Source of the DNA: an uncultured Chloroflexia bacterium
GTDB lineage: Bacteria > Chloroflexota > Limnocylindria > Limnocylindrales > CSP1-4
Assembly (NCBI GenBank): GCA_963708015.1
Contig: OY970185.1
Span: 211,984-275,983 of the forward strand
Direction of reading: 5' to 3'
DNA: 64,000 bases
Below the pieces are notes generated by a model that made no database searches, was not told the DNA's origin, and was given only the letters and a program-made list of their open reading frames with translations. Made by a program: the position numbers and the translations under genes. Shown here in pieces: positions 1 to 25,896 of the stretch; the stretch's first letter is position 1, and every line of letters starts with the position of its first letter.

Positions 1-579
1 CGCTCCGGCGACCAGGCCGGCGCCCTCGGCCATCCGGCGATATTTCGCACGCTGGGCGTCGGCGAGGTCCTGGCCGGGGGCCTCGAAGACAGCGCTTGAG
101 TAGGTCAGCGTCTCGTCCAAGAACAGGCGGTAGAAGTCGTTCCCGAGGTCGTAGTGAGCCGCGATGTTCCGCCTGGCCTGGGCCTTCGTGTTGCGGCGGG
201 CGCGGTGGGCCAGGGTCAGCGGCAGCTGGAGTGGCTTGCGCCACCAGCCCCGGGTCAGCGCGAGGGCCGCCCGGTTGAGCGCGGCCAGCTCGATCAGCCC
301 CTCGAGGTCGGGCGACGACCACAACCCGTCCATGTATGCCTCGCCGGCACCGGTCTCGCCTCGGAGCAGGATCCGGACCGCGGCCTCCTCGTCGTGGACC
401 CGGATCTCCGCCCGGCGGGCCGAGCCGGCGTCGCCGAAGGTGTGCCGACGGCCATCGGGCATGACCACGGTCAACTGGCCGACCTGGATTCGGCCGGCGG
501 CGGCCAGGGCGATCCTCTCGGCGGCGGACACGAGGGTGTCTCGCGAGGCCCGGCCGATCGGCCCGACCCGGGCGGTCAT
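1..579 (-). CDS. cyclopropane-fatty-acyl-phospholipid synthase family SAM methyltransferase (N-terminal part; the 3' end runs off the window)
   Basis: I translated the minus strand myself; the ORF track omits this edge-truncated ORF. The translation from the ATG at 579 includes ...NIAAHYDLGNDFYRLFLDETLTYSSAVF...QDLADAQRAKY..., the classic CFA-synthase N-terminal motif. The ATG overlaps the upstream DUF1365 stop. Confidence 0.8.
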   Translation of the reverse strand, partial: MTARVGPIGRASRDTLVSAAERIALAAAGRIQVGQLTVVMPDGRRHTFGDAGSARRAEIRVHDEEAAVRILLRGETGAGEAYMDGLWSSPDLEGLIELAALNRAALALTRGWWRKPLQLPLTLAHRARRNTKAQARRNIAAHYDLGNDFYRLFLDETLTYSSAVFEAPGQDLADAQRAKYRRMAEGAGLVAGA

Positions 580-581
580 GC

Positions 582-1373
582 TCATCGGACGGCCTGGCGG
601 ATCGGGTTGCCGGCGGACCGCCCGTGGCGCAGGAACGGCACGCCCCGCAGCCACAGGTTCAAGGCGTGCCAGTGGATCAGCCCGATCGTCCGCTGGGTCA
701 TGAACGGATGGCAGACGACCATCCGCAGGACGGCCCGGTCGGTCAGCCGACGGCGGTGGAGGATGACGCTCGTCGACAGGAGCGGCTGGGCCCCGTGGCG
801 CTCGTTGATCGCGATCGTGAGCCGGGCTGGATCGTCGCGAACCACGACCGAGTACTGGCCGGCCATCTCGATGAACGGCGAGACGTAGAACGTCTTGGCC
901 ATCGAGGCCGCGAAGGGCCCGTCCTCCGTTCGCGGCCGGAGCGTGTACAGGTGGCGTTCGAGGTGGGTGTTGTGGACCTCGACGATCACGACCCGGAGGA
1001 CACCGGAACGATCCCGACACAGGTAGAAGCTGGCTGGGTTGAACACGTAGCCCGCAACCCGCAGGTTCGTCACCAGGGTGATCCGCCAGGCGGCCAGGTC
1101 CTCGCCCGGAGCGCCATCCGCCCGAAGGTGCTCGCGCACCGTCGTGGGGAGGTCACCGCCGAGGAGCGGTTCGGGCCAGTGGTCGCGATCCCGGAACTCG
1201 AGCAGATTGGGTCCGTTGCGCCCGACGAGCCGGATCGATCGGGCGACCTCGTCAAGCTCCGCCAGGTCGAGCGCGAAGTAGTAGACATTGTGCTCGAGCC
1301 CGTACGTCACCGGCCGCGAGCGGCGATGGCGGACCTTGCCTTCGAGCAGGTGAGATCGCAATCGAGAGCTCAT
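582..1373 (-). CDS. DUF1365 family protein
   Basis: 263 aa; the N-terminus ([26 protein letters not shown]) is typical of DUF1365. It sits between the amine-oxidase-like gene and the cfa-like gene, and its ATG forms an ATGA overlap with the upstream stop. Confidence 0.8.
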
Positions 1374-2644
1374 GCTGCTGCCTCATCGTCGGCCAGGCTC
1401 GAGATCAGCTCCGCCGCCTCGTAGCCCGACCGGCAGCCATCCTCGTGGAAGCCGTATCCGAGATGGGCGCCGGCGTACCAGGTATTGCGATGACCCTGGA
1501 TCGCCCGGACATGCTCCTGGGCAGCCAGGGTCTCGAACGTGTAGGTCGGATGGCTCATCGAGCGAACGGCGATCACCCGGTCGTCGCGAACTCGATCGCC
1601 GGGGTTGACCGAGACGCAGTACTGGACGTCCCCGCCGATGCCCTGGAGCCGGTTCATGTGGTAGGTCATCGTCAGCCGATCGACCGCCCGGCGGCAGTCG
1701 GGCACCTCGACGTTCCACGATGCCCAGGCCGCGGTCCGCCGGGGCAGGATCGAACGATCGGTGTGGAGCACGACCTCGTTGGTCGAGTAGATGAAGCCGC
1801 CGAGCGCCGTGCGCTCGCGGGGATCGGCGTCGACGAGCAGGTCGATGGCCGCGTCGGCGTGGGTGGCCAGGACGAGCGCATCGACGTGTTCGACCCGGCC
1901 GCCGGCCGTCCTGATCGTTGCCCCGCGCTCATCCCGGCTGATCGTCTGGACCGGATCCCCGGCGCGAAGCGTGCCCGCCGGAAGAGCCTGGAGCAGGCGA
2001 TCAACGTAGGTCCGGGAGCCGCCCACGATCGTGCGCCACTGGATCGCTCGGTCGAGGCCGATCAGGCCATGCTGGTCGAGGAAGCGGAGCAGGTACTCGA
2101 CCGGGAACTCGAGCACTCGGCCGGGCGCGGTCGACCAGACCGCAGCGGTGATCGGGACGATGAAGTGCGCCCGGAAGCCCCGACCGTAGCCGCGCTCATC
2201 GAGGAACTCACCGAGGGTCGCCCCGGTCGGCTGGGGGTTGTCGAGGATCGCCCGGGCATCGCGATAGAAGCGGAGGATGTCGGGGAACATCCGGAGATGG
2301 GCGGGCCGGCCGAGCGCCGAGGGTTGGGCAAAGAAGCCCCGGGCGCCGCGCGAGCTGAACTCGAGATCGCAGGCGCGACAGGCGAAGCCGAGTGACATGT
2401 CCGACGGCCGGGACTCGACGCCGAGCTCGGCGAGCAGCCCGACGAAGCGCGGGTAGGTCCGCTCGTTGTAGACGATGAAGCCGGTGTCGACCTGGAAGGG
2501 ACCGTCCGGGCCGTCGACTCCCACGGTCCTGACGTGGCCGCCGGGCTCGTCGTCCGCCTCGAACAGCTGGACCTTGTGCGATCCCCTCAGGGCAAACGCT
2601 GCGGTCAGGCCGCTGATGCCCGATCCGACGACGGCGATTCTCAT
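1370..2644 (-). CDS. NAD(P)/FAD-dependent oxidoreductase (amine oxidase / phytoene-desaturase-like)
   Basis: 424 aa; N-terminal Rossmann motif [19 protein letters not shown]...[11 protein letters not shown]. It is in 4-nt overlap with the genes on both sides. Confidence 0.85.
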
Positions 2645-3108
2645 GGCTCGACGGCCGCCCCGGCGGCCCGCTCATCGAGCGCGTGCTGCATCCCGTCGAG
2701 GGCATCCTTGGCGAGCTTGCGGAATGCCCCACCGGCGAACGGCTCGATCAGGCGCATCCAGCCGCCGAGGCGGATGTCGGCGGCGTAGTCGATGCGGGTG
2801 CCCGCGCCGGCCGGCTCGAAGCCGATCGAGTCCGTGGCCGAAACGCCAGATCCGCTGCCGAGAAGGATCACCCGGGACGGCCGGTCGTAGGTCGTGATCC
2901 GGTAATCCATCGGGGCGACCCGGCCGCGCATTCGGACCCCGAGCTTGAACGGCGTGCCGACTCTCAGCGGATCGCTTCCGTTTCCCTCGGCGCGAGTGGA
3001 CGTGGCCACGCCGGGATCCCAGAGGCTCGAGTTGGCGAAGTCGGCGACGAAGTCGAAGGCCTGGTCGATCGGCAAGCTTGTGACGATGGTTGCCTTGAGG
3101 CGGGTCAT
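2641..3108 (-). CDS. SRPBCC family (polyketide cyclase/dehydrase-like lipid-binding) protein
   Basis: Only the C-terminal 155 aa of ORF 2641..3936 look protein-like ([32 protein letters not shown]...). The ATG at 3106-3108 is preceded by GGAG. The rest of the ORF is R/G/P-rich wrong-frame read-through. Confidence 0.7.
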
Positions 3109-3156
3109 TTGGGCAGGTGCTCCTGTGGTCGGCTCGGGGCCATCGGTGGGTGATGC

Positions 3157-4233
3157 GTGGCGTCGAGCAATCCGGATCACTGCAGCGTGCGAATGCCTGG
3201 GGTGATCTCCGCGCCGGTGCTCCTTGACCAGCTCCTCGAACTGCTCGTCGTGCCGAGCTTCACCCGGCTTGGCTTTGCCATTCGCTCGCGCGTGTTCAAC
3301 TGGAGGCCCGTGGAGTCCTGGTCCCTGGCCGGCCGGACGATCGTGATCACCGGGCCGACCAGCGGGCTGGGCCGCGAAGCAGCCGGCTCGTTCGCCCGAA
3401 TGGGCGCTCGGTTGGTCCTGGTCGGGAGGGATGCGGAGCGACTCGAGGCGACGGCGGGCGAGCTTCGGAACGGTTCGCCATCGGCCGAGATCGCATGGGT
3501 CGTGGCCGACATGGCCTCGCTCGCGTCGGTGCGCAACGCTGTCGGCGAGATCCTCGCCCTGACGACCCGGATCGATGTGATCGTCGACAACGCCGGGGCA
3601 ATGTTTGCGGAGCGCGGGCTCACTCGCGAGGGGTTCGAGCGAACCTTCGCGACGATGGTCCTCGGGCCGTTCGTGCTCCTCGCCGGACTCCTGCCGGGAG
3701 TGCTGGAGAGCCCGGATGGGCGGATCGTGGCCGTGGCCTCGGGCGGCATGTACGCCGAGGCGCTGCCGCTCGACGACCTCCGGTTCGAGCAGGGCAAGTA
3801 CCAGGGAGCCCGGGCCTATGCCCGGGCGAAGCGCGCCCAGGTCGCGCTGATTCGGGAATGGTCGCGGCGGTTGCCAGCGGCACGGGCCGCCGGAGCGGGC
3901 GACGCTCAGAAACGAGTGACGGCCAATGCGATGCATCCGGGCTGGGCCGACACGCCGGGGCTCGAGGCGTCCTTGCCCGGCTTTCGACGGCGGATCGGCC
4001 GCTGGCTGCGGACCCCGGCCGAGGGCGCCGACACGATGATCTGGCTGGCCGCTTCGGGCGAGGCAGGAGGCGCGACCGGTCAGCTGTTCCTCGATCGCAG
4101 GAAGCGGCCGTTCGATCGGATCCCGACGACCCGGCTATCGGCGGCCGATCGGCGCGTGCTGTGGGATCGCGTGCTCGACCTGACCGGCGAAGTCGACCCG
4201 ATTCGTCGGTTGGGGGTCGCGGCGCTGGAGTAG
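3157..4233 (+). CDS. SDR family NAD(P)-dependent oxidoreductase
   Basis: Contains TGPTSGLGREAA (TGxxxGxG), NAG and a YxxxK region. The true start may lie a few codons downstream, for example MPGV at about 3193. Confidence 0.8.
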   Translation: MASSNPDHCSVRMPGVISAPVLLDQLLELLVVPSFTRLGFAIRSRVFNWRPVESWSLAGRTIVITGPTSGLGREAAGSFARMGARLVLVGRDAERLEATAGELRNGSPSAEIAWVVADMASLASVRNAVGEILALTTRIDVIVDNAGAMFAERGLTREGFERTFATMVLGPFVLLAGLLPGVLESPDGRIVAVASGGMYAEALPLDDLRFEQGKYQGARAYARAKRAQVALIREWSRRLPAARAAGAGDAQKRVTANAMHPGWADTPGLEASLPGFRRRIGRWLRTPAEGADTMIWLAASGEAGGATGQLFLDRRKRPFDRIPTTRLSAADRRVLWDRVLDLTGEVDPIRRLGVAALE

Positions 4234-4314
4234 GATCGCCTCCACCTCGCCAGCGTCGCGAGCGAGTCTCATCGGCGCCGCCTGTGCCGGTGTCTCGGCC
4301 AGGAGGATCAGCTG

Positions 4315-5079
4315 ATGCGTATCGAAGAGGTCGAAGGAATTGGCCCGGCCCACGCCACCTCGCTCACCGCCGCGGGCGTGCCCTCGATCGAAGAGCTCCT
4401 CACCCAGGGCGCCACGACCGCCGGCCGAGCCAAGCTCGCCGAAGTGACCGGGATCAGCCACAAGCAGATTCTGACCTGGGTGAACCTGGCCGATCTGATG
4501 CGGATCAAGGGCGTCGGCCCGGAATATTCCGAGCTGCTCGAGGCGGCCGGCGTCGACTCGCCGGCGGAGCTCGCCCATCGCAACCCGGCGAACCTCGAGA
4601 CGACGTTCCAGGAGGTCGTCGCCGCTCGGCCGGAGATGGTCCGGCGGATCCCGACCGAGGCCGAGATCACCGACTGGATCGAGCAGTCGAAGTCGCTCCC
4701 GAAGGTGGTCGAGCACGGCGGCGGCCACGCCGCGCCGGAGCACGCCGGGCACGAAGGTAACGATCATTCGGCCCACGACGATGCGGAGCACGACCACGCC
4801 GAGCACGATCACGCTGCCCATGAGCACGAGGCCAGTCCGGCCGCCGCAGCTGCGACCATCTCCGAGGCGACCTCCACGCCGGCCGTGTCGACCCCGGCCG
4901 CACCGGCTCCGGCGCCCGCTCCCGAGGCACCGGCTCCGGCCGCACCGGCACCGGCGGCTTCAACTGCGACTGCTCCGGCTCCGGGGGCTTCAGCTGCCGC
5001 TGCTCCGACTCCCGCGGCCCAGGCGGAGGCACCCAAGGGCTTGTGGGCCCGACTCAAGGCGATGTTGTTCGGCGCCTGA
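4315..5079 (+). CDS. DUF4332 (helix-hairpin-helix) domain protein with a His-rich block and an Ala/Pro-rich tail
   Basis: AGGAGG lies 7 nt upstream of the ATG. Repeated EGIGPAHATSL / IKGVGPEYSELLEAAGV HhH-like motifs are followed by HAAPEHAGHEGNDHSAHDDAEHDHAEHDHAAHEHE and then about 80 aa of PAPAPA low complexity. Confidence 0.7.
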   Translation: MRIEEVEGIGPAHATSLTAAGVPSIEELLTQGATTAGRAKLAEVTGISHKQILTWVNLADLMRIKGVGPEYSELLEAAGVDSPAELAHRNPANLETTFQEVVAARPEMVRRIPTEAEITDWIEQSKSLPKVVEHGGGHAAPEHAGHEGNDHSAHDDAEHDHAEHDHAAHEHEASPAAAAATISEATSTPAVSTPAAPAPAPAPEAPAPAAPAPAASTATAPAPGASAAAAPTPAAQAEAPKGLWARLKAMLFGA

Positions 5080-5191
5080 GCGAAAGCGACCGGATCAGCG
5101 GTCCCCAGGTCCGGGGCGGCGGCCGCTCGTCACGGACCCGCGGTTCATGACGGTGGCCCGGCTCGGGTCCTGGGCTGCGGCCCTGCGGCGG

Positions 5192-8100
5192 TCAGACGTT
5201 CGAGAGATCGCCTGATCGGGTCGGGTCGGCAGCCTCGACCGCGGGGTGCTTGCGCGCCAGCGCAGCGTCGAGCCGCTCGACGAACGACTTCGCGCCGAGC
5301 CGGCTGAACATCGCGCGGGCGGCATCGGCGGCCGCCCGGACCTCGGGCTCTGCCGGATCGAGGACGGTTGCCATGTCGATCGCGGTCAGCCCCTCTTCCA
5401 GGACCAGGTGGAGGTCGCGCCAGCGGCGAAGGGCGTCGCGATAGAGACCGAGGGCCTCGGCCTTGCCCTTCTCGGTTGCGGCGAGCCCGGCTTGCATCGT
5501 GATCCGAGTCGCGGCGACGCTGGCGGTTCGGAATCCGGTCGCTTCAAGCTGCTCCAGCTCGGCCGCGAGCGCAGGGATGTCGCCGGCCCAGAGCGCCGCG
5601 TGGCCGGCCAGGGATCGTTGGGCGATCCCATTGAGGGTCCCATTGAGCGCTCCGGCTCGATGATTCTCCCGGTATGCCTCGTCGAGCCGCCCGTCGGCCA
5701 GCGCCCGGGCACCGCGCACCTCGCTCAGGTTCGAAGCGAGCGTGACGTCGGGATTCTGTTCCGATCAGCCGGACCATCTCGGCGATCGACGGCTCGATGT
5801 CTTCGCCGCGAAAAGCGGGGGTCAGCAAGGCATTATCAAGGATTTGCAGGCGGTCCTCGGATGAAGGATCATCGGTCAGCGCTTCGCCGAGGACGGCTTC
5901 AGAGCGATCCCACTCGCCCAACCGGAACGCCATGTAGCCGATCCCGACGGCGAAGCCGAAGACCCAGCTCCGCAGACCCATCCGGCGGGCCAGGGCCAGT
6001 CCCTCCTTCTGTGCTTCATAGGTGGCCCTCGGGTCCATCTCGCCCTGGTAGACCGTCCGGTTGTTGATCGCCCGCAGGAGGATCGAGACGAGGCCCGCAG
6101 ATCGGGCCAGTCGCTCGCCCGTCTCGATCATTCCGACGCCCTCGATGAGGCGACCGATATCGCCCAGGGCGCTGCCCTTCGTGATCAATGTGTCGGCCAC
6201 GAGGGCGTCGAGCTCGGACGGCTCGGCGACTTCGAGCGCCCGATCGGCCATCTCGATGGCCTTCCGGCTGTCCCCGGTCAGCATGCAGGCGCGAGCGAGC
6301 TGGCTGTGGAGTGCGACGAGCGCCGGGTCGCTGCCGAGATCGGCGAACTCGACCACGGCCGGCCCGAGGAGCTCCAGGGCCTCGGCTGTCCGGCGGGCGC
6401 TCAGGCGGACCCGGCCGAGGGCGGCCGTTGCCCGAGCGGTCGCGATCCGGTCGCCCCGCTCCCGGTTGAGTTCCGTGGCCCGCTCGAGGAACGCTTCGGC
6501 GTCGTCGTGGCGGGCCGCCGACGAGGCGATCTCGCCGGCGCGCTCGAGGAGCTCGGCCGTCTCGGTCGGATCGGTGGTCACGGTGAGTGCCTGGTTGAGG
6601 AACGTAACCGCCTGGTCGTACGAACCGAGGGCGATCGCCCGGGCGGCGGCGGCCTTCAGAGCGATCCGGGCCTGGCCGGCGAGCGCGTCGGCCTCGACGC
6701 CGTCCGGGGCGCTGGCATAGGCCGCCAGGTAGTGCCCGGCGAGGCCACCGGCGATCTCCTCGGAATCGAGGCTCTCGAAGAACCGCGCTGCGGCGAGATG
6801 GCGCGCTTTGCGATCCTTCTTGGCCAGGGTGTTGTAGGCAACCTCGCGGATCAGGGCCTGGACGAAGGCGTACTGGCCATGCTCGGGCGAGCGAGGGTCC
6901 GTTTCGCGGCTGAGCAGCTCTCGTCGGACGAGGCCGAGGAGGCGCGGCTCCAGCTCGGCCTCCGGGATCCCCGAAACGGCCGAGAGGCCGGCCAGGGTGA
7001 AGCTCTGGCCAAGAACGGCGGCGTCGGAGACGAGCGTCCGATCCTCGGCCGCCAGGCCGTCAAGCCGGGAGGCAATCAGGGCGGTGAGCGTCTCCGGAAC
7101 CGCCACGCTGGTCAGGTCGCCAATCGGCCGGTAGACGCCATCTTCCAGGGCCAGGCGGCCCTCCGCGAGCAGCATCCGGACCGTTTCAACGGCGTAGAGC
7201 GGCATCCCGTCGGCTCGATCGACGATCGCCTTGACGGCGGCCGCCGGCAGACCCGGAACCAGGCCGGCCAGGAGCTCACGCATCGCGGCCGGCGAAAGCG
7301 GCTCGAGGTAGAGCGAGGTGAAGTTGCGCTTGCCGGCGCCCCAGTCCGGGCGCTTCTCGAGGAGCTCCGGGCGCGACAGGGTGACGACGTAGATCGGGAC
7401 ATTCCGGCTCCACTCGAGGACGTGGTCGACGAAGTCGATCAGGCCGACGTCGGCGAAGTGGAAGTCCTCGAACACGAGGACGACCGGAGCCGTCGCAGCG
7501 AGGCGCTCGAAGAACGTTCGCCAGGCGGCGAAGAGCTGCTCCGAGCCGCTGGCCGCGGTTTCGACCCCAAGCAGGGCGAGGAGCGCTGGCTCGATCCAGC
7601 GCCGCTCCTCGGGATCGGGCACATGGGTTGCGAGCGTCTCGGCGACCTTGGCTCGCGTCGTCGAAGCGTCGTCGGTCTCGAGCAGGCGGCAGCGCTCCCG
7701 GACCATTTCGCCCAGGGCCCAGAAGCTGATCCCGTCGCCGTAGGCCGGCGAGCGGCCATCGTGGAACCAGACGGTCTCGACCAGGCCGTCGATGTACTTG
7801 AGGAGCTCCCAGGCCAATCGCGTCTTGCCGATCCCGGCTGGGCCGATCACCGATACGAGCCGGGCCCGGCCGTCGCGACTTGTCGAGTGGAAGAGGTCCT
7901 TGAGCTGGCGCAGCTCGTCCTCCCGGCCGACGAACGGGGCCTCGAGCGTCTCGGCCCGGTTCCGCCCGCCGACCTCGGCCACGACCCGGACCGCGCGCCA
8001 GGCCTCGACCGGAGCAGACTTGCCCTTGAGGACCTGGTCGCCGGCCTCCTCGAACGCGATCGCCTTGCTCGCGGCCCGCTGGGTCGCCTCACCGACGAGG

Positions 8101-8744
8101 ACGGTCCCGGGCTGGGCCACGCTCTGGAGTCTCGATGCGGTGTTGACGAGGTCGCCAGCGACCATCCCCTCGTTCGTCGCCCCGATCGTGACCGCGGCTT
8201 CGCCCGTGAGCACGCCGGCCCGGGCCTGGATGCCGGGCCCCAGGCCCTTCACGGCATCGACGAGCTCGAGGGCCGCCCGGACGCACCGCTCGGCGTCGTC
8301 CTCGTGGGCGATCGGCGCACCCCAGACGGCCATCACCGCGTCGCCGATGAATTTCTCGACGGTTCCGCCGTAGCGGGCGATCACGTCGCGCGAGAGCTCG
8401 AAGTAACGCGAGAGCAGCTCGCGGGTGTCCTCGGCATCCCGACCCTCGGCCAGGGTCGTGAAGCCGACGAGATCGGCGAACAGGATCGAGACGACCCGGC
8501 GTTCCGCGACGGGCGCGGCCTGTGGTACCGGGCTGGGCCGGACGATCCGGGGCAGGGTCGGCCCGGCAGTCTGCGTCGCCGGGGCGGGCGCCGCGGTCAC
8601 TTTCGTGCCACATTCGCCACAGAACTTGGCCCCAGCCGGGATCGGCGCGCCACAGGTGGGGCAGCCGGTCGCCAAGGGCTCACCGCATTCGATACAGAAC
8701 TTGCGACCGGCCTCGTTGACCTTGCCGCAGCTTGTGCAGGGCAC
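5192..8744 (-). CDS. adenylate/guanylate cyclase domain protein (double zinc ribbon - class III cyclase - AAA/STAND ATPase - TPR), interrupted by an apparent frameshift near 5760
   Basis: The N-terminus is CTSCGKVNEAGRKFCIECG...CPTCGAPIPAGAKFCGECG, with the cyclase core FADLVGFT...FIGDAVMAVWGAP and the P-loop GPAGIGKT. ORF 5544..8744 turns into R/G/P junk after ...IAEMVRLIG. The TPR-like C-terminus continues in ORF 5192..5719, which begins directly after a stop at about 5763. Confidence 0.75.
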
Positions 8745-8826: not shown

Positions 8827-9399
8827 TCAAGGGGTCAGCGTTCGAGAGCGGGCCTCGGCAATTGCCACGATGTCGACCAGGGCGCGCTCGATCTCGGACG
8901 CACGGTCCGCCTCGAGGGCGGAGACCATTCCCGGGATGAGCTCCGCCCGTGAGCGGCCATTGACGAAGACGCAGTAGCGGAAGCCGAAGCGGGCTTCGTA
9001 GGCCTGGTTCAAGCGCTCCAGCTCAGCCGCGACCGCACCGGCCGCGTCAACCGCGTCTGCCGGGTCGGCGGCATCGGGCGACTCGGCCGGCAGTCCGGTC
9101 TCCGCCTCGGCTGAGCCGTAGCCCTGCTCGCGGAACGACATCGCGGAGACGCTGGCCGGCGGCGCACCCAGTCGGGGATGGGCGTCGATCAACTCGAGCT
9201 GGGCAGCTTCGGGCATCGCCTTGGCGATCTCGAGCGCGGCCGGCCAGAGGGCCTCGTAACCGGCGAACGGCCGGCGCGCCGCGAGCAACCCGAGGAACGT
9301 GGGCGCGTTCTCGAAGAGTGGCCCGACGACGCCGGCGAATTCGTCAGCCGGCAGGCCGTTGAGGGTCGCGATCGGCGGCACGGTCCGATCCGCCGACAT
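8827..9399 (-). CDS. uraD: OHCU decarboxylase (2-oxo-4-hydroxy-4-carboxy-5-ureidoimidazoline decarboxylase)
   Basis: 190 aa; shows the IDAHPRLG signature and ...YEARFGFRYCVFVNGRS.... It overlaps the HIU hydrolase by one nucleotide. Confidence 0.8.
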   Translation of the reverse strand: MSADRTVPPIATLNGLPADEFAGVVGPLFENAPTFLGLLAARRPFAGYEALWPAALEIAKAMPEAAQLELIDAHPRLGAPPASVSAMSFREQGYGSAEAETGLPAESPDAADPADAVDAAGAVAAELERLNQAYEARFGFRYCVFVNGRSRAELIPGMVSALEADRASEIERALVDIVAIAEARSRTLTP

Positions 9400-9752
9400 C
9401 AGCTACCGAGGTAGGTCGACAGTCCGAAGGCGGTGAGCAGGAGCGGCACGTGGTAGCTGCGGTCGATGTCGATCACCCGCAGGTCGAGCGCGATCGCCTG
9501 GAACAGGGGGCTGCGTTCGCCCGTTTCGAAGCGGAGCCGGTAGGTCCCGGCGACGAGCGGCCGCCCAAGCAGGTCCGCCACCCGGCCATCCGAATCGGTC
9601 ACGGCCGAGCCGATCGGGACCTCGTGGCCGTCCGGTCCGACGAGGGCCAGGCGGATCGTGATGCCCGCGGCCGGCGCTCCAAGGCCCGTGTCCAGGACGT
9701 GGCTCGAGATCGTCGGGACCCGATTGGCCACGCTATCCTCCGCGTATGGCAC
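9399..9752 (-). CDS. uraH: hydroxyisourate hydrolase (transthyretin-like)
   Basis: 117 aa; ISSHVLDTGLGAPAAG...TYRLRFETG...YHVPLLLTAFGLSTYLGS. The C-terminal YxGS tetrapeptide is typical of HIUases. Confidence 0.85.
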   Translation of the reverse strand: MPYAEDSVANRVPTISSHVLDTGLGAPAAGITIRLALVGPDGHEVPIGSAVTDSDGRVADLLGRPLVAGTYRLRFETGERSPLFQAIALDLRVIDIDRSYHVPLLLTAFGLSTYLGS

Positions 9753-10192
9753 GACTCCAGATCGAGGTTGGCGACCTCCACTTTAGCGCTCGCTGGGAGC
9801 CTGCCGCGCCCCGCACGATCGAGGCGATCCGGCGGATGCTGCCGATCCAGGCGTCGCTGATCCACTGTCGCTGGAGCGGCGAGTCGACCTGGATCCCGTA
9901 CGGCGACCTGCGACCCGGGATCGACTACGAGAACCACACCTCGCATCCGGCCCCGGGCCAGCTCGCGCTCTACCCAGGCGGGATCAGCGAGTGCGAGATC
10001 TTCTTCCCGTACGGCGCCTGCACGACGAGCTCGAAGGTCGGCCAGCTCGCCGCGAACCACTTCGCCACGATCGAGCCCGACGTGGCTGACGGGGCTTCGA
10101 ACGCGCAAGGCTGGGCCGATCGCCTGCGCGAGGTCGGGCGGCGCTGCCTGTGGCAGGGCGCTCAGCAGATCACGATCCGCGAGGTCGACTGA
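9746..10192 (+). CDS. DUF3830 family (cyclophilin-like fold) protein
   Basis: 148 aa (MARLQIEVGDLHFSARWE...). It is divergent from uraH and lies immediately upstream of the allantoinase. Confidence 0.6.
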   Translation: MARLQIEVGDLHFSARWEPAAPRTIEAIRRMLPIQASLIHCRWSGESTWIPYGDLRPGIDYENHTSHPAPGQLALYPGGISECEIFFPYGACTTSSKVGQLAANHFATIEPDVADGASNAQGWADRLREVGRRCLWQGAQQITIREVD

Positions 10193-10197
10193 CCGGC

Positions 10198-11613
10198 GTG
10201 TTCGGGCCCGGCGGCTCGAGCGTTGAACTCCTCGTCCGGGGCGGGACGATCGTTACGCCAAGTGGCTCTCGCCGGGCCGACCTGGCGGTCGCAGGCGGCC
10301 GAATCAGTGCGATCGAACCCAACCTCGCCGGGCTGGCGGCCAACGCCCGGGAGGTCGTCGACGCGACCGGCCTCCTCGTCCTGCCGGGCATGGTCGACGT
10401 CCACACCCACACCCGCGTTGCGAGCGACGCCGAGCCCGATCGCTTCTTCCAGGACTCGGTTGCGGCGGCCTTCGGTGGGACGACCACGTTCCTGGCCTTC
10501 AACAATCCCGGCACGGGGTCGTCACCTGCGGCCGAGCGATCCCTCGTTGCCGGCCTGGCCGAATGGCGGGCTGCGACGAGCTCTGATTCGGCGGTCGACT
10601 ACGCGGTCAGCCTGGCCGTGAGCGGCCGGATGGAGGATCCGATCGCCGAGCTACCGGTGATCGTCGATGACGGCGTCCCGACCGCCAAGGCGTTCATGGT
10701 CTTCGACTTCCGGCTCGACGACGAGCGCCTGCGTCAGGCGATCGCGACGATGGGCCGGCGCGGGGGTCGGCTCGAGGTCCACTGCGAGGACCCGCTCATC
10801 ATCGACACCGAGGTCGCGGCGGCCCTGGCCCGGGGCGATACGGCGCCGCGCTTCCACGCCTCGTCCCGGCCGGCCCGAGCCGAGGCGATCGCGACGGCTC
10901 GGGCGATGGACTTCGCGGAGGCCGCGGATGCGCCGGTCCACGTCGTCCATCTCTCCTCGGCCGGCGCACTCGAGGCCATCCGGGCGGCCAAAGCCCGCGG
11001 CGTCCGCGCCTCGGCCGAGACCTGTCCCCACTACCTGGCCCTGACCGACGCCCGCTACCTCGATCCCGACGACCGGGAGGTCGCCAAGGTCGTCATCTCG
11101 CCGCCGCTCCGCTCCGCCGCGGATCGAGATGCGATGTGGGCCGGGCTGGCCGACGGCACGCTCGACCTGGTCGCAACCGACCACGTCCCGGATCGGGGCG
11201 CGGTCGAGAAACGGGTCGAGGGCGTCCCGTTCGACCGGATCAGCAACGGGGCGCCGGGGATCGAGACCCTGCTCGCGATCGCCTGGTCGGAGGGCGTGGC
11301 CCGCGGCAGGATCAGCCCCGAGCGCCTGGTCGAGCTGCTCGCCGCCGAGCCGGCTCGCCTGTTCGGACTCGGCTCGAAGGGCGTCCTGGAGCCAGGCCGC
11401 GACGCGGACTTCGTCCTGTTCGATCCCGCCGCCCGACGGACGATTCGGGCTGTCGAACTCCATCACACCTCGGACTACACTGCGTACGAGGGCCTGGCGG
11501 TGAGCGGAGCTGTCCGATCGGTCTTCGTCCGGGGCCGAGCCGTGATCCGCGACGGCCTGTTCGTCGGCCAGCGCGGCTACGGCCGGTTCGTCGAGCGGCG
11601 GTTGGGCGACTGA
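10198..11613 (+). CDS. allB: allantoinase / dihydropyrimidinase-family cyclic amidohydrolase
   Basis: The HxH motif VDVHTHTR, the carboxylated-Lys region AKAFMVF, and HVVHLSS / ATDHVP are present. The GTG at 10198 directly follows the DUF3830 stop. The ORF-track start at 10150 would overlap DUF3830 by 43 nt. Confidence 0.8.
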   Translation: MFGPGGSSVELLVRGGTIVTPSGSRRADLAVAGGRISAIEPNLAGLAANAREVVDATGLLVLPGMVDVHTHTRVASDAEPDRFFQDSVAAAFGGTTTFLAFNNPGTGSSPAAERSLVAGLAEWRAATSSDSAVDYAVSLAVSGRMEDPIAELPVIVDDGVPTAKAFMVFDFRLDDERLRQAIATMGRRGGRLEVHCEDPLIIDTEVAAALARGDTAPRFHASSRPARAEAIATARAMDFAEAADAPVHVVHLSSAGALEAIRAAKARGVRASAETCPHYLALTDARYLDPDDREVAKVVISPPLRSAADRDAMWAGLADGTLDLVATDHVPDRGAVEKRVEGVPFDRISNGAPGIETLLAIAWSEGVARGRISPERLVELLAAEPARLFGLGSKGVLEPGRDADFVLFDPAARRTIRAVELHHTSDYTAYEGLAVSGAVRSVFVRGRAVIRDGLFVGQRGYGRFVERRLGD

Positions 11614-12691: not shown

Positions 12692-13644
12692 GCCACGCTC
12701 CACGTGCCGGCCGGCTGCTCGGTCCCGTCGGGCGCAATGAACATGCCGGCGAGGCCGTGCCGCTCGAGGAAGCGGGCACCGTCGAGCGGGCCGAGAAGGA
12801 ACGCTGCCTTGGCCGCCGCCTCGGCCTGGGTGCAGTTCGGCGCAGCGACCGAGGCGGACCAGAGCGCGGACGTGGACGGCATCCCCGTCCGCGGATCGAT
12901 CAGGTGATGTCGGAGAGCAGCACCCTGGCTCCAGCGCCGCCTGGACGTGCTCGATGTGGCGATCGCCCCGAACCGCAACGAGACGGTCCGGTCCTGCCGG
13001 GGACTTTCGATCGCGATCGACCACGAGTCGGAACCGGCGGGCAGGCCCAGGACTGCGAGATCGCCCCCCGCGTCAACGGCGGCCGTCTGGACTCCGCGTG
13101 CCGCCAACTGGGCGATTGCGGCGTCCACGGCCATCCCCTTGACCAGGCCGCCGAGGTCAATCCCGACGCCGGCCGGCAGCTCGACGATCCGGCCAGCGTC
13201 GAGTAGCCGGAGGTCGCGCCAGCCGCCGGTCTTGGCCGGCGGGCCGGTCATATCCGGGACCTGGGGGCGAGCCAGCACGGCACTGAAGTCCCGGTCGTAG
13301 CCGATCGACTCGAGCGAGGCCAGGAGCGTCGGATCGAACAGGCCATCGGTTGCCTGGGCGGCCTGCCTGGCCGTGGCAAGGACCCTGAACATGAGGTCAC
13401 TGACGACGCACGGCCGCCCGGCCGCCGCGTTCAACCCGCTCAGCTCGCTGTCGGGATCGAACCGGGAGAACCGCCCTTCCCAGTCCCGGAAGAGCGTCTC
13501 GACCGCTCCGGCCTCGGCCCGGCGCGAACCGGGCAGGAGGACCGAAACGCTCGTGCCCATCGCCTCGAAGGTGGCGCGGACGAGATCGCCCGGCGTCAGG
13601 AGCTGCTGGGCCGTCGGATCCCGTCGGGCCAACGGCGAACCCAT
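12688..13644 (-). CDS. apbE: FAD:protein FMN transferase (ApbE family)
   Basis: Shows ...FEAMGTSVSV..., LGGLVKGMAVD and the ApbE fold signature. The start was chosen at the internal Met (MGSPLARRDP) so that the gene does not overlap the upstream gene. Confidence 0.85.
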   Translation of the reverse strand: MGSPLARRDPTAQQLLTPGDLVRATFEAMGTSVSVLLPGSRRAEAGAVETLFRDWEGRFSRFDPDSELSGLNAAAGRPCVVSDLMFRVLATARQAAQATDGLFDPTLLASLESIGYDRDFSAVLARPQVPDMTGPPAKTGGWRDLRLLDAGRIVELPAGVGIDLGGLVKGMAVDAAIAQLAARGVQTAAVDAGGDLAVLGLPAGSDSWSIAIESPRQDRTVSLRFGAIATSSTSRRRWSQGAALRHHLIDPRTGMPSTSALWSASVAAPNCTQAEAAAKAAFLLGPLDGARFLERHGLAGMFIAPDGTEQPAGTWSVA

Positions 13645-19121: not shown

Positions 19122-21989
<2,868 letters not shown>

Positions 21990-22020
21990 TCTCGACTCCC
22001 TGTTCAGGGCTCGACGGTGC

Positions 22021-22875
22021 TCACCACCCGCCGGCGTCGCGGATCAGGCGGTGAACGACGCGCGCGGCGACCACCCGGCGGTAGTCTGCCGTCGAGCGGA
22101 CATCATCGATCGGCTCGATCTCCGCGGCAAGGGTGACGAATGCGCTATCGGCCGTGTCGCTGGTTGGCGGTCGGCCCTCGATGGCGGCCTCGGTCGCGGT
22201 CGCCCGGATCGGCCGCTCGGCCACGGATCCGAGGCCCAGCCGAACCGACTCCCAGGGCGTATCGGCCGCGACTGCGACCCAGCTCAGGGCTAGGACGACC
22301 TTGCTGATCGCCTGCGCCCGGCGCGTCCCGATCTTGCGAAAGCGGACCTGGCGATCGGCCACGAGCGGAATCCGGATCCGGACGACGAGCTCGTCCGGCG
22401 CGAGGGCCGTCGTGCGGTAGCCGGTCCAGAAGGCCGCGGCAGGGATCGAGCGTTCGCCCCGGATCGAACCGGCCTCGATCGTCGCGTCGGTGGCCAGCAG
22501 GACCGGCAGCGTGTCGCCGGCCGGCGAGGCATTCGCAATGTTGCCCCCGAGCGTCCCCCGGTTCTGGATCTGGGCCGCCCCGATCGTCGCCGCGGCCTCG
22601 GCCAGGACGGGCAGCAGGTCGTGGCAGACCGCCGAACGGCGAATCTCGGTGTAGGTCGTCAGGGCGCCGAACGTGAGCGCGTCGCCGTCGAGGGCGATCC
22701 CGCGCAGCTCGTCGAGGCGCCACAGGTCGAGCAGCCGGTCGACCGGCGGGCCGGTCCCCGACGAGAGCTGGACGAGGACGTCGGTCCCGCCCGCGAGCGG
22801 CCGGTGGGATGCCGAGGCCAGCAGCTCGTAGGCATCGGCCAGGCGTTCGGGCGAGACAAGCGGCGGCTCGATCAC
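22021..22875 (-). CDS. xanthine dehydrogenase FAD-binding subunit (CoxM/XdhB-like)
   Basis: Only the portion downstream of the GTG at 22875 is protein-like ([19 protein letters not shown]...GGTDVLVQL...[14 protein letters not shown]). The GTG overlaps the Fe-S subunit stop (GTGA). The N-terminal 132 aa of ORF 22021..23271 are wrong-frame. Confidence 0.8.
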
Positions 22876-23387
22876 GGCTCGATCGCGGCGCTGGCTTCGC
22901 GCCGGCTCGACGCCAGGGCGATCGCGTCGATGATCTTCGTGTAGCCGGTGCAGCGGCACAGGTTGCCCGCGATCGCCTCCCGGATCGCGTCGTCGGTCGG
23001 GGCGGCCCCGGACGCGAGGAAGGCCTCGGCCGACATCAGCATGCCCGGGGTGCAGATCCCGCATTGGGCACCGCCGGCCTCGAGGAAGGCCAGCTGGAGC
23101 AGATCGAGGTCGTCGACCACGGCCGGCTCGACCGCGGTCGGCTGGCGACGCCCGAGGCCCTCGACCGTTCGGACCACGCGGCCGTCGACCTGGCTGATCG
23201 GGACGAGGCACGCGTCGACGACCTGGCCGTCGAGCAGGACCGTACACGCCCCACACTCCCCCTCGCCGCAACCCTCCTTCGTCCCGGTCAGGCCCAGATC
23301 CTCCCGCAGGACATCGAGCAGGCGCCGGACACCGGGCAAATCGAGCTCGACCGGAACGTCGTTGACCCGAAAACGGAGCGCGGTCAC
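22872..23387 (-). CDS. xanthine dehydrogenase [2Fe-2S] iron-sulfur subunit
   Basis: 171 aa beginning at a GTG (VTALRFRVNDVPVE). Both cluster motifs are present: CGEGECGACTV and CGICTPG...CRCTGY. The GTG overlaps the large-subunit stop. Confidence 0.85.
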   Translation of the reverse strand: MTALRFRVNDVPVELDLPGVRRLLDVLREDLGLTGTKEGCGEGECGACTVLLDGQVVDACLVPISQVDGRVVRTVEGLGRRQPTAVEPAVVDDLDLLQLAFLEAGGAQCGICTPGMLMSAEAFLASGAAPTDDAIREAIAGNLCRCTGYTKIIDAIALASSRREASAAIEP

Positions 23388-25831
23388 GTCGAGGCGCCGC
23401 TCGTCCCGGCGCCCGTGGGGCCGGGGGCCGGTGCCAACGGGCCCGCCAGTGCCGCCAGGATTCGTTCCGGGCTGGCCGGCAGCTCGTGGATCCAGAGCCC
23501 GGTCGCGTCGTGGATCGCGGCCACCACGGCCGGCGCTCCGACGTCCATCGGCAGCTCGCCGATCCCCTTCGCCCCGTGCGGCGCCCCGCTGAATGGGGCT
23601 TCGACCAGGATCGTGCTGATCCGCGGGGCGTCGAGCGCGGTCGGGATCAGGTACGTGGCGAGCCGGTCGTTCAGGTAGCGGCCATCGCGGAGCTTGATCT
23701 CCTCGATCGTGGCGTAGCCGACGGCCTGGAGCGTGCCGCCCTCGACCTGGCCCTCGGCCAGGACCGGATGGATCACCCGGCCGACGTCGTCGGCGGCGAC
23801 GACGCTGCGCACGGCCACCTCGCCCGTGTCGAGGTCGACGTCCACCTCGGCGATCGCCGAGGCCCAGCCGAAGGCCGGGTAGGCATCGCCGCGATAGGTC
23901 GTGTCGTCGAAGTCGACCCCCGGATACGGTTCGAAGTGCTGGTCGATCCGGGTCGCCCCGTGGATCCGGGCGTCTTCCGCATAGCGCTGGGCGAACAGTT
24001 CGCCGTTCGGGCTGCGTTGCTCGACCACGGCCCGCAGGCGCCGGCAGGCCTCGATCGCCAGGCCGCCCACGACCATCGCCGTGCGCGAGGCGACGGTCGG
24101 ACCGCTGTCCGGGACCTGGGCCGTGTCCACGTCGGCCAGCTCGATCTCGTCCATGGGCACGCCGAGGGCTTCGGCCGCGAGCTGGGGGAAGATCGTCTTC
24201 GTGCCCTGGCCCATCTCGGTCGAGCCGATCAGGATCCGGATCCGGCCGTCCGCCCCGAGCTCGACCGAGGCGACGGAAGCGAGGTGGACCTCGCCCGATC
24301 CGGTGAATCCGGCGCCATGCCAGGCGAGGGCGAGGCCGATCCCATGGGCGCTCCGAGCCGGTCCCGGCCGGTCGGACCGAGCATCGGCCACCCGAGCGCC
24401 GCCCGCCGGATCGTGAGCAGCCGCCTGGCGGGCCGCCCGCTCGTTGGCCGTGCGCGTCCGGATCCGCTCGTACTCGGCTGCCTCGGCGGCGCGATCGAGG
24501 ACCTCCTCGGCAGCCACGCTCTCGCGCAGGACCTGGCCGGTCGGGGTCGTGTCGCCCGGCCGGTACAGCCAGCGACGGCGCAGCTCGAGCGGTGATGCGC
24601 CCAGGGCCTCGGCGATCCGGTTGACCTGCATCTCGGCGGCGAACTCGGTCTGGGGCGCCCCAAAGCCGCGGAAGGCCCCGTTCGGGGGCGTGTTCGTGGC
24701 GACCGCTCGCGAGGTGATCCGGATATTCGGACAGGCATACGGGCCGCCCGAGTGGAGCGTGCCCCGGGACAGGACGACCGGGCTGAGCGTGCAGTACGCC
24801 CCGCCGTCCATCACGATCTCGATCTGCTGGGCGACCAGCCGGCCGTTGGCCGAGACGCCGCTCCGGTAGCGGACGATCGCCGGATGGCGCTTCGTCGTCG
24901 CCGCGATGTCCTCGTGACGGTCGTAGATCATCCGGACGGGCCGGCCGCAGGCCCGGGCGAGTAGCGCCGCGTGGAGGGCCAGGATCGAGGGGTACTCCTC
25001 CTTGCCGCCGAAACCGCCGCCGGTCTCGGCCTGGATCACCTGGGCCTGTGCGTCCGTCAGGAGGAGCGAGCGCCGGAGCGCCCGGTGGACGTAGTACGGG
25101 CACTGGAGCGAACCGTGGACGGCGACCCCGCCGTCGTCCCTGGGCACCGCGATCATCGCGTTGTTCTCGATGTAGAGCTGCTCCTGGTGGCCGACCCGGT
25201 ACTCGCCCTCGATCACCAGGCTCGCTGCGGCGAAGCCAGCCACGAGATCGCCGGTCTCGATCTCGTAATGGGCGAAGACCTGCTCGCTGAGGAGCGGGTC
25301 GAGGACGGCCGGCAGTGCTTCAGTCCGGACCTGGAGATGGCCGATTGCCTCGCGCAGGAGGTTCCGGTCGGGCGCTGCCACGAGCGCGATCGGCTCGGCG
25401 TGATGGCGGATCTCGGTCTCGACCAGGATCGGCTGATCGTCCTGGATCGAGCTGACGATGTTCGGCCCGGGAATGTCGGCCGCGGTGACGACGACGACCT
25501 TCGACCAGTCGAAGTCCGGGGCCCGCTCGATCCCCAGGAGGCGGGCGTGAGCCTCGGTCGAGCGGATCGTGGCGCCGTACCAGGCACCCGGAAACACCAG
25601 GTCGTCGGTGTAGCGGGCGGTGCCGGTGAGCTTGGCCGGGCCTTCCCGCCGAAGCGGCCCGCGGGGCCTCGCCAAGCCCGGGGTTGGAGCATCGGGCCGA
25701 AGAATCACAGGGGTCGCCGCGCGACCAAGTCGCTCGGTCGCCGGGACCGTCGGCTCACGAATCGCCGGTTCGGCAACCCGTGCCGTGGGGGTCCGGATGG
25801 TCATCTCAGCCCGTACATCCTGACGCCCCAC
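23384..25831 (-). CDS. xanthine dehydrogenase molybdopterin-binding large subunit
   Basis: 815 aa of the aldehyde oxidase / xanthine dehydrogenase a/b hammerhead plus MoCo-binding domains (GGGFGGKEEY; the FRGFGAPQ region). The start could instead be the Met at 25804. Confidence 0.9.
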   Translation of the reverse strand: MGRQDVRAEMTIRTPTARVAEPAIREPTVPATERLGRAATPVILRPDAPTPGLARPRGPLRREGPAKLTGTARYTDDLVFPGAWYGATIRSTEAHARLLGIERAPDFDWSKVVVVTAADIPGPNIVSSIQDDQPILVETEIRHHAEPIALVAAPDRNLLREAIGHLQVRTEALPAVLDPLLSEQVFAHYEIETGDLVAGFAAASLVIEGEYRVGHQEQLYIENNAMIAVPRDDGGVAVHGSLQCPYYVHRALRRSLLLTDAQAQVIQAETGGGFGGKEEYPSILALHAALLARACGRPVRMIYDRHEDIAATTKRHPAIVRYRSGVSANGRLVAQQIEIVMDGGAYCTLSPVVLSRGTLHSGGPYACPNIRITSRAVATNTPPNGAFRGFGAPQTEFAAEMQVNRIAEALGASPLELRRRWLYRPGDTTPTGQVLRESVAAEEVLDRAAEAAEYERIRTRTANERAARQAAAHDPAGGARVADARSDRPGPARSAHGIGLALAWHGAGFTGSGEVHLASVASVELGADGRIRILIGSTEMGQGTKTIFPQLAAEALGVPMDEIELADVDTAQVPDSGPTVASRTAMVVGGLAIEACRRLRAVVEQRSPNGELFAQRYAEDARIHGATRIDQHFEPYPGVDFDDTTYRGDAYPAFGWASAIAEVDVDLDTGEVAVRSVVAADDVGRVIHPVLAEGQVEGGTLQAVGYATIEEIKLRDGRYLNDRLATYLIPTALDAPRISTILVEAPFSGAPHGAKGIGELPMDVGAPAVVAAIHDATGLWIHELPASPERILAALAGPLAPAPGPTGAGTSGAST

Positions 25832-25896
25832 GATGGGACCGGGCTTGCCGGGCTGTCAAGCGTGGCCCTGGGCAGGTCCGACGATGGCGTCCTTGG

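Follow-up and report, generated by a model that had tools for sequence, protein, structure and literature searches.

A four-gene operon at one end of a 64,000-nucleotide stretch of DNA from an uncultured Chloroflexia bacterium of the order Limnocylindrales (contig OY970185.1, positions 211,984 to 275,983; hereafter, the window) is, with a probability that we put at roughly 0.6, a UfaM/UfaD/UfaO-type operon that modifies fatty-acyl chains and makes a furan fatty acid. The most likely product would be a monomethyl furan fatty acid, formed from a phospholipid-bound monoene via first a methyl-alkene and then a methyl-diene. Furan fatty acids reside in membranes and scavenge both singlet oxygen and radicals; the pathway by which they are made has been established only for a few proteobacteria. 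In that pathway a methylase of the cyclopropane fatty acid (CFA) synthase family (UfaM), an NAD/FAD-binding (nicotinamide/flavin adenine dinucleotide) desaturase (UfaD) and a DUF1365 protein (UfaO) act in succession; UfaD is phytoene-desaturase-like and makes a 10t,12t methyl-diene, its product being detected only in aerobically grown cells, and UfaO inserts an oxygen atom from O2 (PMC7380195). The authors of the pathway already reported homologues 'across the bacterial phylogeny' (PMC7380195), and what we describe widens the taxonomic range of an established pathway by one lineage; the system itself is of a known kind. The architecture is specific to this lineage, with a leading SRPBCC gene, a divergent gene for a short-chain dehydrogenase/reductase (SDR) and a dyad-symmetric element of its own. 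The sequences themselves show the gene structure, the protein families, the synteny conserved among relatives and the subfamily to which the methyltransferase belongs; the main uncertainty is chemical, not genomic.

The operon lies on the minus strand at 1..3108. Its first gene (2641..3108) encodes a 155-amino-acid SRPBCC (START/Bet v 1-like) protein (Polyketide_cyc2, PF10604, E = 1.6 × 10−17) and is followed by genes for a UfaD-like FAD-dependent oxidoreductase of 424 amino acids (1370..2644; PF01593, 4.8 × 10−22, and PF13450, NAD_binding_8, 3.4 × 10−13), a UfaO-like DUF1365 protein of 263 amino acids (582..1373; PF07103, 8.1 × 10−68) and a CFA-synthase-family methyltransferase dependent on S-adenosylmethionine (SAM) (1..585; PF02353, CMAS, 2.5 × 10−16). 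The window holds the first 195 codons of the methyltransferase gene, which starts with the ATG at 585–583 and runs past the window start. According to the open reading frame (ORF) listing and translation, all three junctions are 4-nt overlaps (582–585, 1370–1373 and 2641–2644). The SRPBCC gene begins with the ATG at 3108–3106, with AGGAG 5′ of it at 3124–3120. The G+C content of the operon region is 69–71%, and that of third codon positions is approximately 0.87–0.88 in the four frames, consistent with coding sequence. A preliminary description of this DNA had proposed four overlapping minus-strand genes in 1..3108 that form a UfaM/UfaD/UfaO-type locus, with an SRPBCC protein encoded alongside the three enzymes. 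The ORF listing, translation and Pfam matches bear out the four genes, the overlap and the PF10604 match bear out the SRPBCC gene, and all three pathway enzyme families are present and translationally coupled. The proposed extent of the operon held in part: the four genes are real, and the unit probably reaches past 3108. The functional unit would probably take in the divergent intergenic region (3109..3201) and the SDR gene that ends at 4233.

Most of the methyltransferase had to be read from a relative. A contig (L088) reached through a 94%-identical protein (P0002) matches the window at 92–96% identity across 9.5 kb, with an unchanged set of neighbouring genes. It supplies the 3′ end of the gene that the preliminary description had found missing: its methyltransferase is a complete CMAS protein of 417 amino acids, 96% identical to the window fragment over all 195 amino acids, and the PF02353 fold and N-terminal extension are confirmed. 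The next gene in L088 is 258 nt away, which indicates that the operon ends with the methyltransferase. A DUF1365 protein identical to that of the window is also present in public data.

We compared the methyltransferase with E. coli Cfa and BfaB enzymes (PMC7791843 supplement 3), with the ufaM and cfa products of Halomonas sp. YLGW01 (PMC12089945 Table S1) and with the in-cluster enzymes of five annotated replicons. The Halomonas DNA was damaged by optical character recognition (OCR) and was stitched across frameshifts, with a few residues marked X. At E. coli Cfa positions 139, 173, 236, 239, 240, 266, 268 and 317, the two Cfa enzymes and three BfaB enzymes read CDGEHHIY. Halomonas UfaM reads SEEEAQIY, as do the in-cluster enzymes of Rhodococcus, Streptomyces and Rhizobium, L088, a further related locus (L001) and 58 of 68 orthologues from Limnocylindria. 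The window itself has a serine at the position of C139 (motif YSSAVF); the later positions fall outside it and were seen in L088, L001 and the relatives. H266 is replaced by glutamine in L088, L001 and 66 of the 68 relatives, G236 and H240 of Cfa are replaced by glutamate and alanine in the full-length orthologues, and E239, I268 and Y317 are retained. Besides C139S and H266Q, three more signature positions differ from all of the compared Cfa and BfaB sequences. We take C139, E239, H266, I268 and Y317 to be the bicarbonate-binding residues of E. coli Cfa. In PMC7791843 supplement 3 these residues are said to be highlighted, without a list. From this alignment we propose S139/E236/A240/Q266 (E. 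coli Cfa numbering) as a candidate UfaM-type signature, as distinct from an established criterion.

The phylogeny gives the same grouping. In a neighbour-joining tree of 391 columns (100 bootstraps), in which full-length orthologues represent the window gene, the DUF1365-linked methyltransferases including Halomonas UfaM form one clade with 97% bootstrap support, separate from a Cfa clade and a BfaB clade that each have 100% support. Within it, the Limnocylindria enzymes are sister to the actinobacterial sequences (93%). The window fragment alone scores 77–80 bits to UfaM-type enzymes in tblastn, compared with 56–59 bits to Cfa and 43–45 bits to BfaB; for Halomonas, the values are 77 bits to UfaM and 59 bits to Cfa. 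When produced in E. coli, Halomonas ufaM leads to 11-methyl-octadec-12-enoate and cfa to cyclopropane acids (PMC12089945). The signature and the clade that full-length orthologues of the window gene share with a characterised UfaM support the earlier suggestion of modified fatty acids as opposed to simple cyclopropanation.

The FAD enzyme and the DUF1365 protein were compared with synteny-defined orthologues, that is, DUF1365-linked pairs from proteobacteria and actinobacteria. The FAD enzyme, encoded immediately upstream of the DUF1365 protein, has an N-terminal dinucleotide-binding motif (GSGISG at residues 7–12), and its sequence places it in the amine-oxidase/phytoene-desaturase superfamily. 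It is 35–43% identical over about 410 amino acids to six DUF1365-linked FAD oxidoreductases, with scores of 256–336 bits; among solved structures LkcE is closest at 129 bits, and other oxidases score at most 39 bits. It is thus closer to the DUF1365-linked enzymes than to other flavin amine oxidases. The DUF1365 protein is 29–35% identical to its proteobacterial and actinobacterial counterparts, matches positions 1–232 of the 235 in the PF07103 profile and keeps all 23 columns that are invariant in an 11-sequence alignment from four phyla (among them H16, R18, D64, E132, N135, T136, R140, H141, Y143, K160, S165, P166 and F167). Its predicted fold is a cofactor-less β-barrel, similar to those of spirocyclase and lipid- and haem-binding barrels, which would fit an oxygenase or cyclase that encloses an acyl chain. 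A search of solved structures returned none for any DUF1365 protein, and no NCBIfam model matched that of the window.

To place the operon in its lineage, we used a genome scan with a clade-level DUF1365 alignment (348 species-level genomes; counts are from the best 80). This alignment replaced a cross-phylum alignment that was too diverse, and the scan thus yielded only Chloroflexota. The best 80 are metagenome-assembled genomes (MAGs) of this phylum labelled Candidatus Limnocylindrales, Limnocylindria or 'uncultured Chloroflexia', with one labelled Saccharimonadales, and identity across these matches is 59–73%. The order FAD enzyme, DUF1365 protein, methyltransferase is colinear in 78 of the 80 loci, and the arrangement is therefore not due to chance. 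The SRPBCC gene is directly upstream of the FAD-enzyme gene in 63 of the 66 loci in which this position is visible, and 58 of 62 loci have a neighbouring SDR gene, which is divergent in 55 and in the other 3 shares the strand of the operon and immediately precedes the SRPBCC gene. Synteny at this level combined with 58–80% protein identity points to purifying selection on the whole module. In one long-read MAG (L001/L009) the FAD-enzyme gene was called in two pieces of 272 and 175 amino acids (L001 6699..8004), which points to a frameshift or to faulty assembly.

The same three protein families make up the UfaM–UfaD–UfaO systems of Rhodobacter (Cereibacter) sphaeroides, Rhodopseudomonas palustris and Halomonas. 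The pathway genes are consecutively numbered in R. palustris (RPA2569–2571; PMC7380195) and consecutive in Halomonas sp. YLGW01 (PMC12089945); UfaM of R. sphaeroides is RSP2144 (UniProt Q3J4I7; PMC10940516), and its UfaD and UfaO have the accessions Q3IYV7 and Q3IYV8. The window shares the gene order of the FAD enzyme, DUF1365 protein and methyltransferase with the proteobacterial and actinobacterial clusters that we fetched, and, through its full-length orthologues, the signature and clade of Halomonas UfaM. It differs from the proteobacterial systems in phylum (Chloroflexota, of monoderm type), in sequence (29–43% identity for the FAD enzyme and DUF1365 protein) and in its accessory genes: an SRPBCC gene is joined by a 4-nt overlap and the long divergent SDR is of another subfamily, whereas the DUF3833, chalcone-isomerase-like, DUF2878, DUF2177 and NTF2-like proteins of the proteobacterial clusters are absent from the locus. 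In a Paracoccaceae replicon rpoE–chrR lies directly beside the FAD-enzyme/DUF1365 pair, and in a Rhizobium tropici plasmid and a Pseudoalteromonas replicon it lies within the cluster, which in Pseudoalteromonas also has a photolyase gene. Homologous pairs beside rpoE–chrR, as in Rhodobacter, indicate a singlet-oxygen context elsewhere.

Clusters in Rhodococcus erythropolis and Streptomyces sp. have the core gene order and the methyltransferase signature of the window, but carry DUF1295 and α/β-hydrolase genes and no leading SRPBCC gene, and their product is only putative. We take their arrangement to be that of M. tuberculosis Rv0449c–Rv0446c with ufaA1. Plants have the same three domains in the lipid-droplet proteins AtUFAMD1 (AT3G23510; an FAD domain fused to a CFA-family domain) and AtUFAO1 (AT1G30130; DUF1365) (PMC10940516), and the association is therefore ancient and widespread. 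These proteins are eukaryotic, combine oxidase and methyltransferase in one polypeptide and are likened to those of the window by description (PMC10940516). The BfaA/BfaB system (Rv3719/Rv3720), which makes 10-methyl stearate (tuberculostearic acid), likewise pairs a CFA-family methyltransferase with a flavoprotein and acts on phospholipid-bound monounsaturated chains; BfaA is described as an FAD-binding oxidoreductase or FAD oxidase (PMC7791843, PMC5660069). This system has no DUF1365 gene, and BfaB keeps CDGEHHIY and its own clade. From our reading of its sequence, BfaA is presumably of the FAD-linked-oxidase type and unrelated to the amine-oxidase-like protein of the window. A BfaAB tuberculostearate locus was rejected, as the window methyltransferase is outside the BfaB clade and the adjacent flavoprotein is of the amine-oxidase type.

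We infer the chemical steps, the roles of the SRPBCC protein and SDR, and the regulation as follows. The methyltransferase would transfer a methyl group from SAM to a cis-monounsaturated phospholipid acyl chain and release a methyl-branched trans-alkene with no cyclopropane; the FAD enzyme would convert this alkene, with O2, to a conjugated methyl-diene; and the DUF1365 β-barrel protein would insert an oxygen atom from O2 and close the furan ring; the resulting monomethyl furan fatty acid may scavenge singlet oxygen and radicals. A probable role of the SRPBCC protein, the translationally coupled product of the first gene, is to bind the hydrophobic acyl chain, or an intermediate, or to present it. 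The divergent SDR would be a lineage-specific redox accessory, and the 40-bp dyad that the two units share probably controls both.

Several points weigh against a furan product. The lipid of these uncultured Limnocylindria is predicted from genes alone. In the comparisons, synteny-defined orthologues and Halomonas UfaM stood in for RSP2144, RSP1091 and RSP1090 as presumed equivalents. The catalytic two-thirds of the methyltransferase are outside the window and were read from the 96%-identical orthologue. The signature is tied to a reaction outcome in one characterised UfaM, the one stitched from an OCR-damaged DNA table, and it is also borne in full by the Rhodococcus in-cluster homologue, a Mycobacteriales-type enzyme that we take to be of the M. 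tuberculosis ufaA1 type. UfaA1 has been reported to yield 10-methyl stearate in crude extracts (PMC5660069). In R. sphaeroides, RSP1089 (402 amino acids, same operon) is dispensable for furan fatty acid synthesis and UfaM is encoded elsewhere (PMC7380195, PMC12089945), so that position in a cluster is no guarantee of UfaM function. Among the neighbours of the window operon within 6 kb, there is no rpoE–chrR or photolyase gene; the intergenic region carries another conserved dyad instead, and a sigma factor encoded elsewhere may conceivably act on the operon. The end-product could instead be a mid-chain methyl-branched fatty acid, either methyl-alkenyl or, after reduction that the SDR might perform, saturated 10- or 11-methyl, with FAD and DUF1365 proteins that do not form a furan. 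We regard this as unlikely, while giving it some weight. It draws on the UfaA1 result, obtained with recombinant enzyme in a crude E. coli extract supplied with SAM and NADPH (summarised in PMC5660069), on the signature of the Rhodococcus homologue, on the conserved neighbouring SDR, which could reduce a double bond, and on the build-up of methylated intermediates in proteobacteria too (PMC7380195); but the authors of PMC5660069 themselves doubt the UfaA1 result. The FAD-enzyme and DUF1365 genes are, moreover, coupled to the methyltransferase gene and kept with it in nearly all related loci, and their idleness would be hard to explain. The genetically established route to 10-methyl stearate uses another methyltransferase clade (BfaB) and an FAD-linked oxidase (BfaA) that we take to be unrelated.

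An ordinary cyclopropane fatty acid synthase with unrelated or accessory neighbours is a highly improbable reading of the methyltransferase. The best NCBIfam matches of the fragment are indeed cyclopropane synthase models, but they are far below threshold (98.5 bits against 600, and 71.8 against 400). The protein shares with E. coli Cfa the PF02353 fold and an N-terminal lipid-binding extension; by contrast, C139, G236, H240 and H266 are replaced, two of these (C139S and H266Q) at the presumed bicarbonate-ligand positions, with three further signature differences, and the enzyme falls in the 97%-bootstrap clade with one shown to make a methyl-alkene and not a cyclopropane. A plain cyclopropane synthase was rejected on the signature and clade. 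It is less probable still that the module acts on a different lipid (a carotenoid, hopanoid precursor or polyketide, for instance) instead of a fatty acid. The superfamily of the FAD enzyme includes phytoene desaturase, HpnE and amine oxidases, and the enzyme weakly matches the HpnE, CrtD and CrtI models of NCBIfam; its nearest solved structure, LkcE, is a polyketide-tailoring amine oxidase; and the SRPBCC protein matches Polyketide_cyc2 in a superfamily that includes polyketide cyclases. The HpnE, CrtD and CrtI matches are, however, far under the family cut-offs, the scores to DUF1365-linked homologues are two to three times those to LkcE, and none of the genes next to the operon is for a polyketide synthase or for carotenoid or hopanoid synthesis.

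The SRPBCC protein and SDR are conserved parts of the Limnocylindria module, not of the proteobacterial clusters, and are candidates for accessory factors of the pathway (substrate presentation and reductant). A lipid-binding role for the SRPBCC protein is suggested by its family membership only. On a plasmid of Streptomyces sp. NBC_00158 (L004 10638..11090), an SRPBCC gene whose product is 31% identical to that of the window (66 bits) is found 2.6 kb downstream of an FAD-enzyme/DUF1365/CFA/DUF1295 cluster and is preceded by a MerR regulator gene; it may be a distant echo of the SRPBCC association. The SDR gene (PF00106, adh_short, 3 × 10−26) is on the plus strand in an ORF at 3157..4233 and has an uncertain start, with candidates at 3157, 3193, 3202 and 3217; the GTG at 3202 agrees with the start conserved in relatives, giving a gene of approximately 3202..4233. 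Kinship to the 240-amino-acid SDRs of proteobacterial clusters was rejected, the similarity being generic (24% identity, 47 bits). Directly after the SDR gene, a DUF4332/helix-hairpin-helix protein, histidine-rich over one stretch and ending in a long Ala/Pro-rich tail, is encoded on the plus strand (4315..5079). Its gene is kept at this position in L088 but in only 1 of the 80 genome-scan loci.

The region between the divergent units consists of the operon 5′ leader (3109..3153, minus strand), with the ribosome-binding site and a degenerate inverted repeat, and a 40-bp dyad-symmetric element without strand (3154..3193) whose motif is conserved in relatives. We aligned 29 upstream sequences, those of 28 loci of the closest subclade and the window. 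The dyad reads TTCG-N13-TCCGGA-N13-CGAA, with one mismatch in the window; 24 fetched loci each have a single copy of the exact form, which in every case lies between the SDR and SRPBCC genes. Two other matches in the window have two mismatches each, a threshold at which 0.49 are expected by chance. Its arms read TGCGAA(T) outward on each strand, and the conserved SDR start follows about 8 nt after the arm. Two promoters placed back to back, from which the SDR mRNA would be almost leaderless, are one possible reading of the element; an operator bound by a dimeric regulator is the other. Closer to the operon, 5′ of the ribosome-binding site, relatives have an inverted repeat (GGGTCC-N7-GGACCC) that is degenerate in the window (approximately 3141–3127). 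In the alignment 88% of its cells pair, and covariation is weak (4 double changes; a score as high arose in 2 of 500 shuffles). RNAalifold predicted no common structure from the leader alignment, and Rfam gave no match over the window. Across 1..5300, a σ70 scan found no promoter-like site and a terminator scan found one terminator-like site, which is not above chance. No regulator is conserved beside the operon among the related loci; a response regulator and kinase in L001 recur in one other distinct locus.

In relatives, a heliorhodopsin gene recurs near the operon. It is at most 8 kb away in 11 of 79 distinct related loci (L054 at 5324–6100, L063 at 5342–6124, L056, L074, L039, L057 and L001/L010/L012/L014/L015), its placement taking at least four forms; if the gene is single-copy and the genome 3 Mb in size, we estimate that chance would account for fewer than one such locus. 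L054 and L063 have the heliorhodopsin gene between the SDR gene, whose direction it shares, and the SRPBCC gene, so that it is divergent from the operon. These loci belong to relatives, and the 64 kb of the window contain no heliorhodopsin gene. A survey ties monoderm heliorhodopsins to genes for light-induced oxidative stress, without mention of this cluster (PMC8612252), and a full-text literature search returned no paper that connects these genes to Limnocylindria or heliorhodopsin to the cluster. A speculative and rather doubtful extension would be a five-gene, light-linked module in which the SRPBCC protein and SDR are obligatory, the dyad co-regulates both units and heliorhodopsin is tied in in several species; this module might make a furan fatty acid under light stress sensed by heliorhodopsin, or an undescribed reduced or cyclised oxygenated lipid.

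If the operon is indeed of the UfaM/UfaD/UfaO type, Limnocylindria, which are abundant and uncultured in soil and freshwater, are predicted to make methylated or furan acyl chains, which would be potential lipid biomarkers. A simple residue signature is also predicted to separate DUF1365-linked methyltransferases from cyclopropane synthases. The recurrent heliorhodopsin neighbourhood suggests that light sensing and membrane protection may be connected, which can be tested. Current understanding is not overturned by these predictions.

Beyond the SDR and DUF4332 genes, the neighbours of the operon are a cyclase-AAA_16-TPR gene, within 6 kb, and genes for urate catabolism. The purine/urate catabolism neighbourhood includes genes for 2-oxo-4-hydroxy-4-carboxy-5-ureidoimidazoline (OHCU) decarboxylase (8827–9402), 5-hydroxyisourate (HIU) hydrolase/transthyretin (9399–9782), an allantoinase-like amidohydrolase (10090–11613) and a xanthine-dehydrogenase-type molybdopterin subunit (23384–25855); the OHCU decarboxylase and HIU hydrolase genes adjoin the operon in L088 too. 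A 973-amino-acid ORF on the minus strand (19122..22043) combines uricase (PF01014, 3 × 10−50) with a complete malate synthase (MS_N, TIM barrel at 1.1 × 10−108, MS_C) and would be an unusual fusion of urate oxidation with glyoxylate capture. The only tRNA gene in the window is for tRNA-Ser (CGA; 13441..13530, minus strand). The cyclase-AAA_16-TPR gene (5544..8744, minus strand) encodes a regulator-like protein of 1,066 amino acids with a double zinc ribbon, an adenylate/guanylate cyclase domain, an AAA_16 ATPase and TPR repeats, and in L088 a second gene of this architecture is found downstream of the operon.

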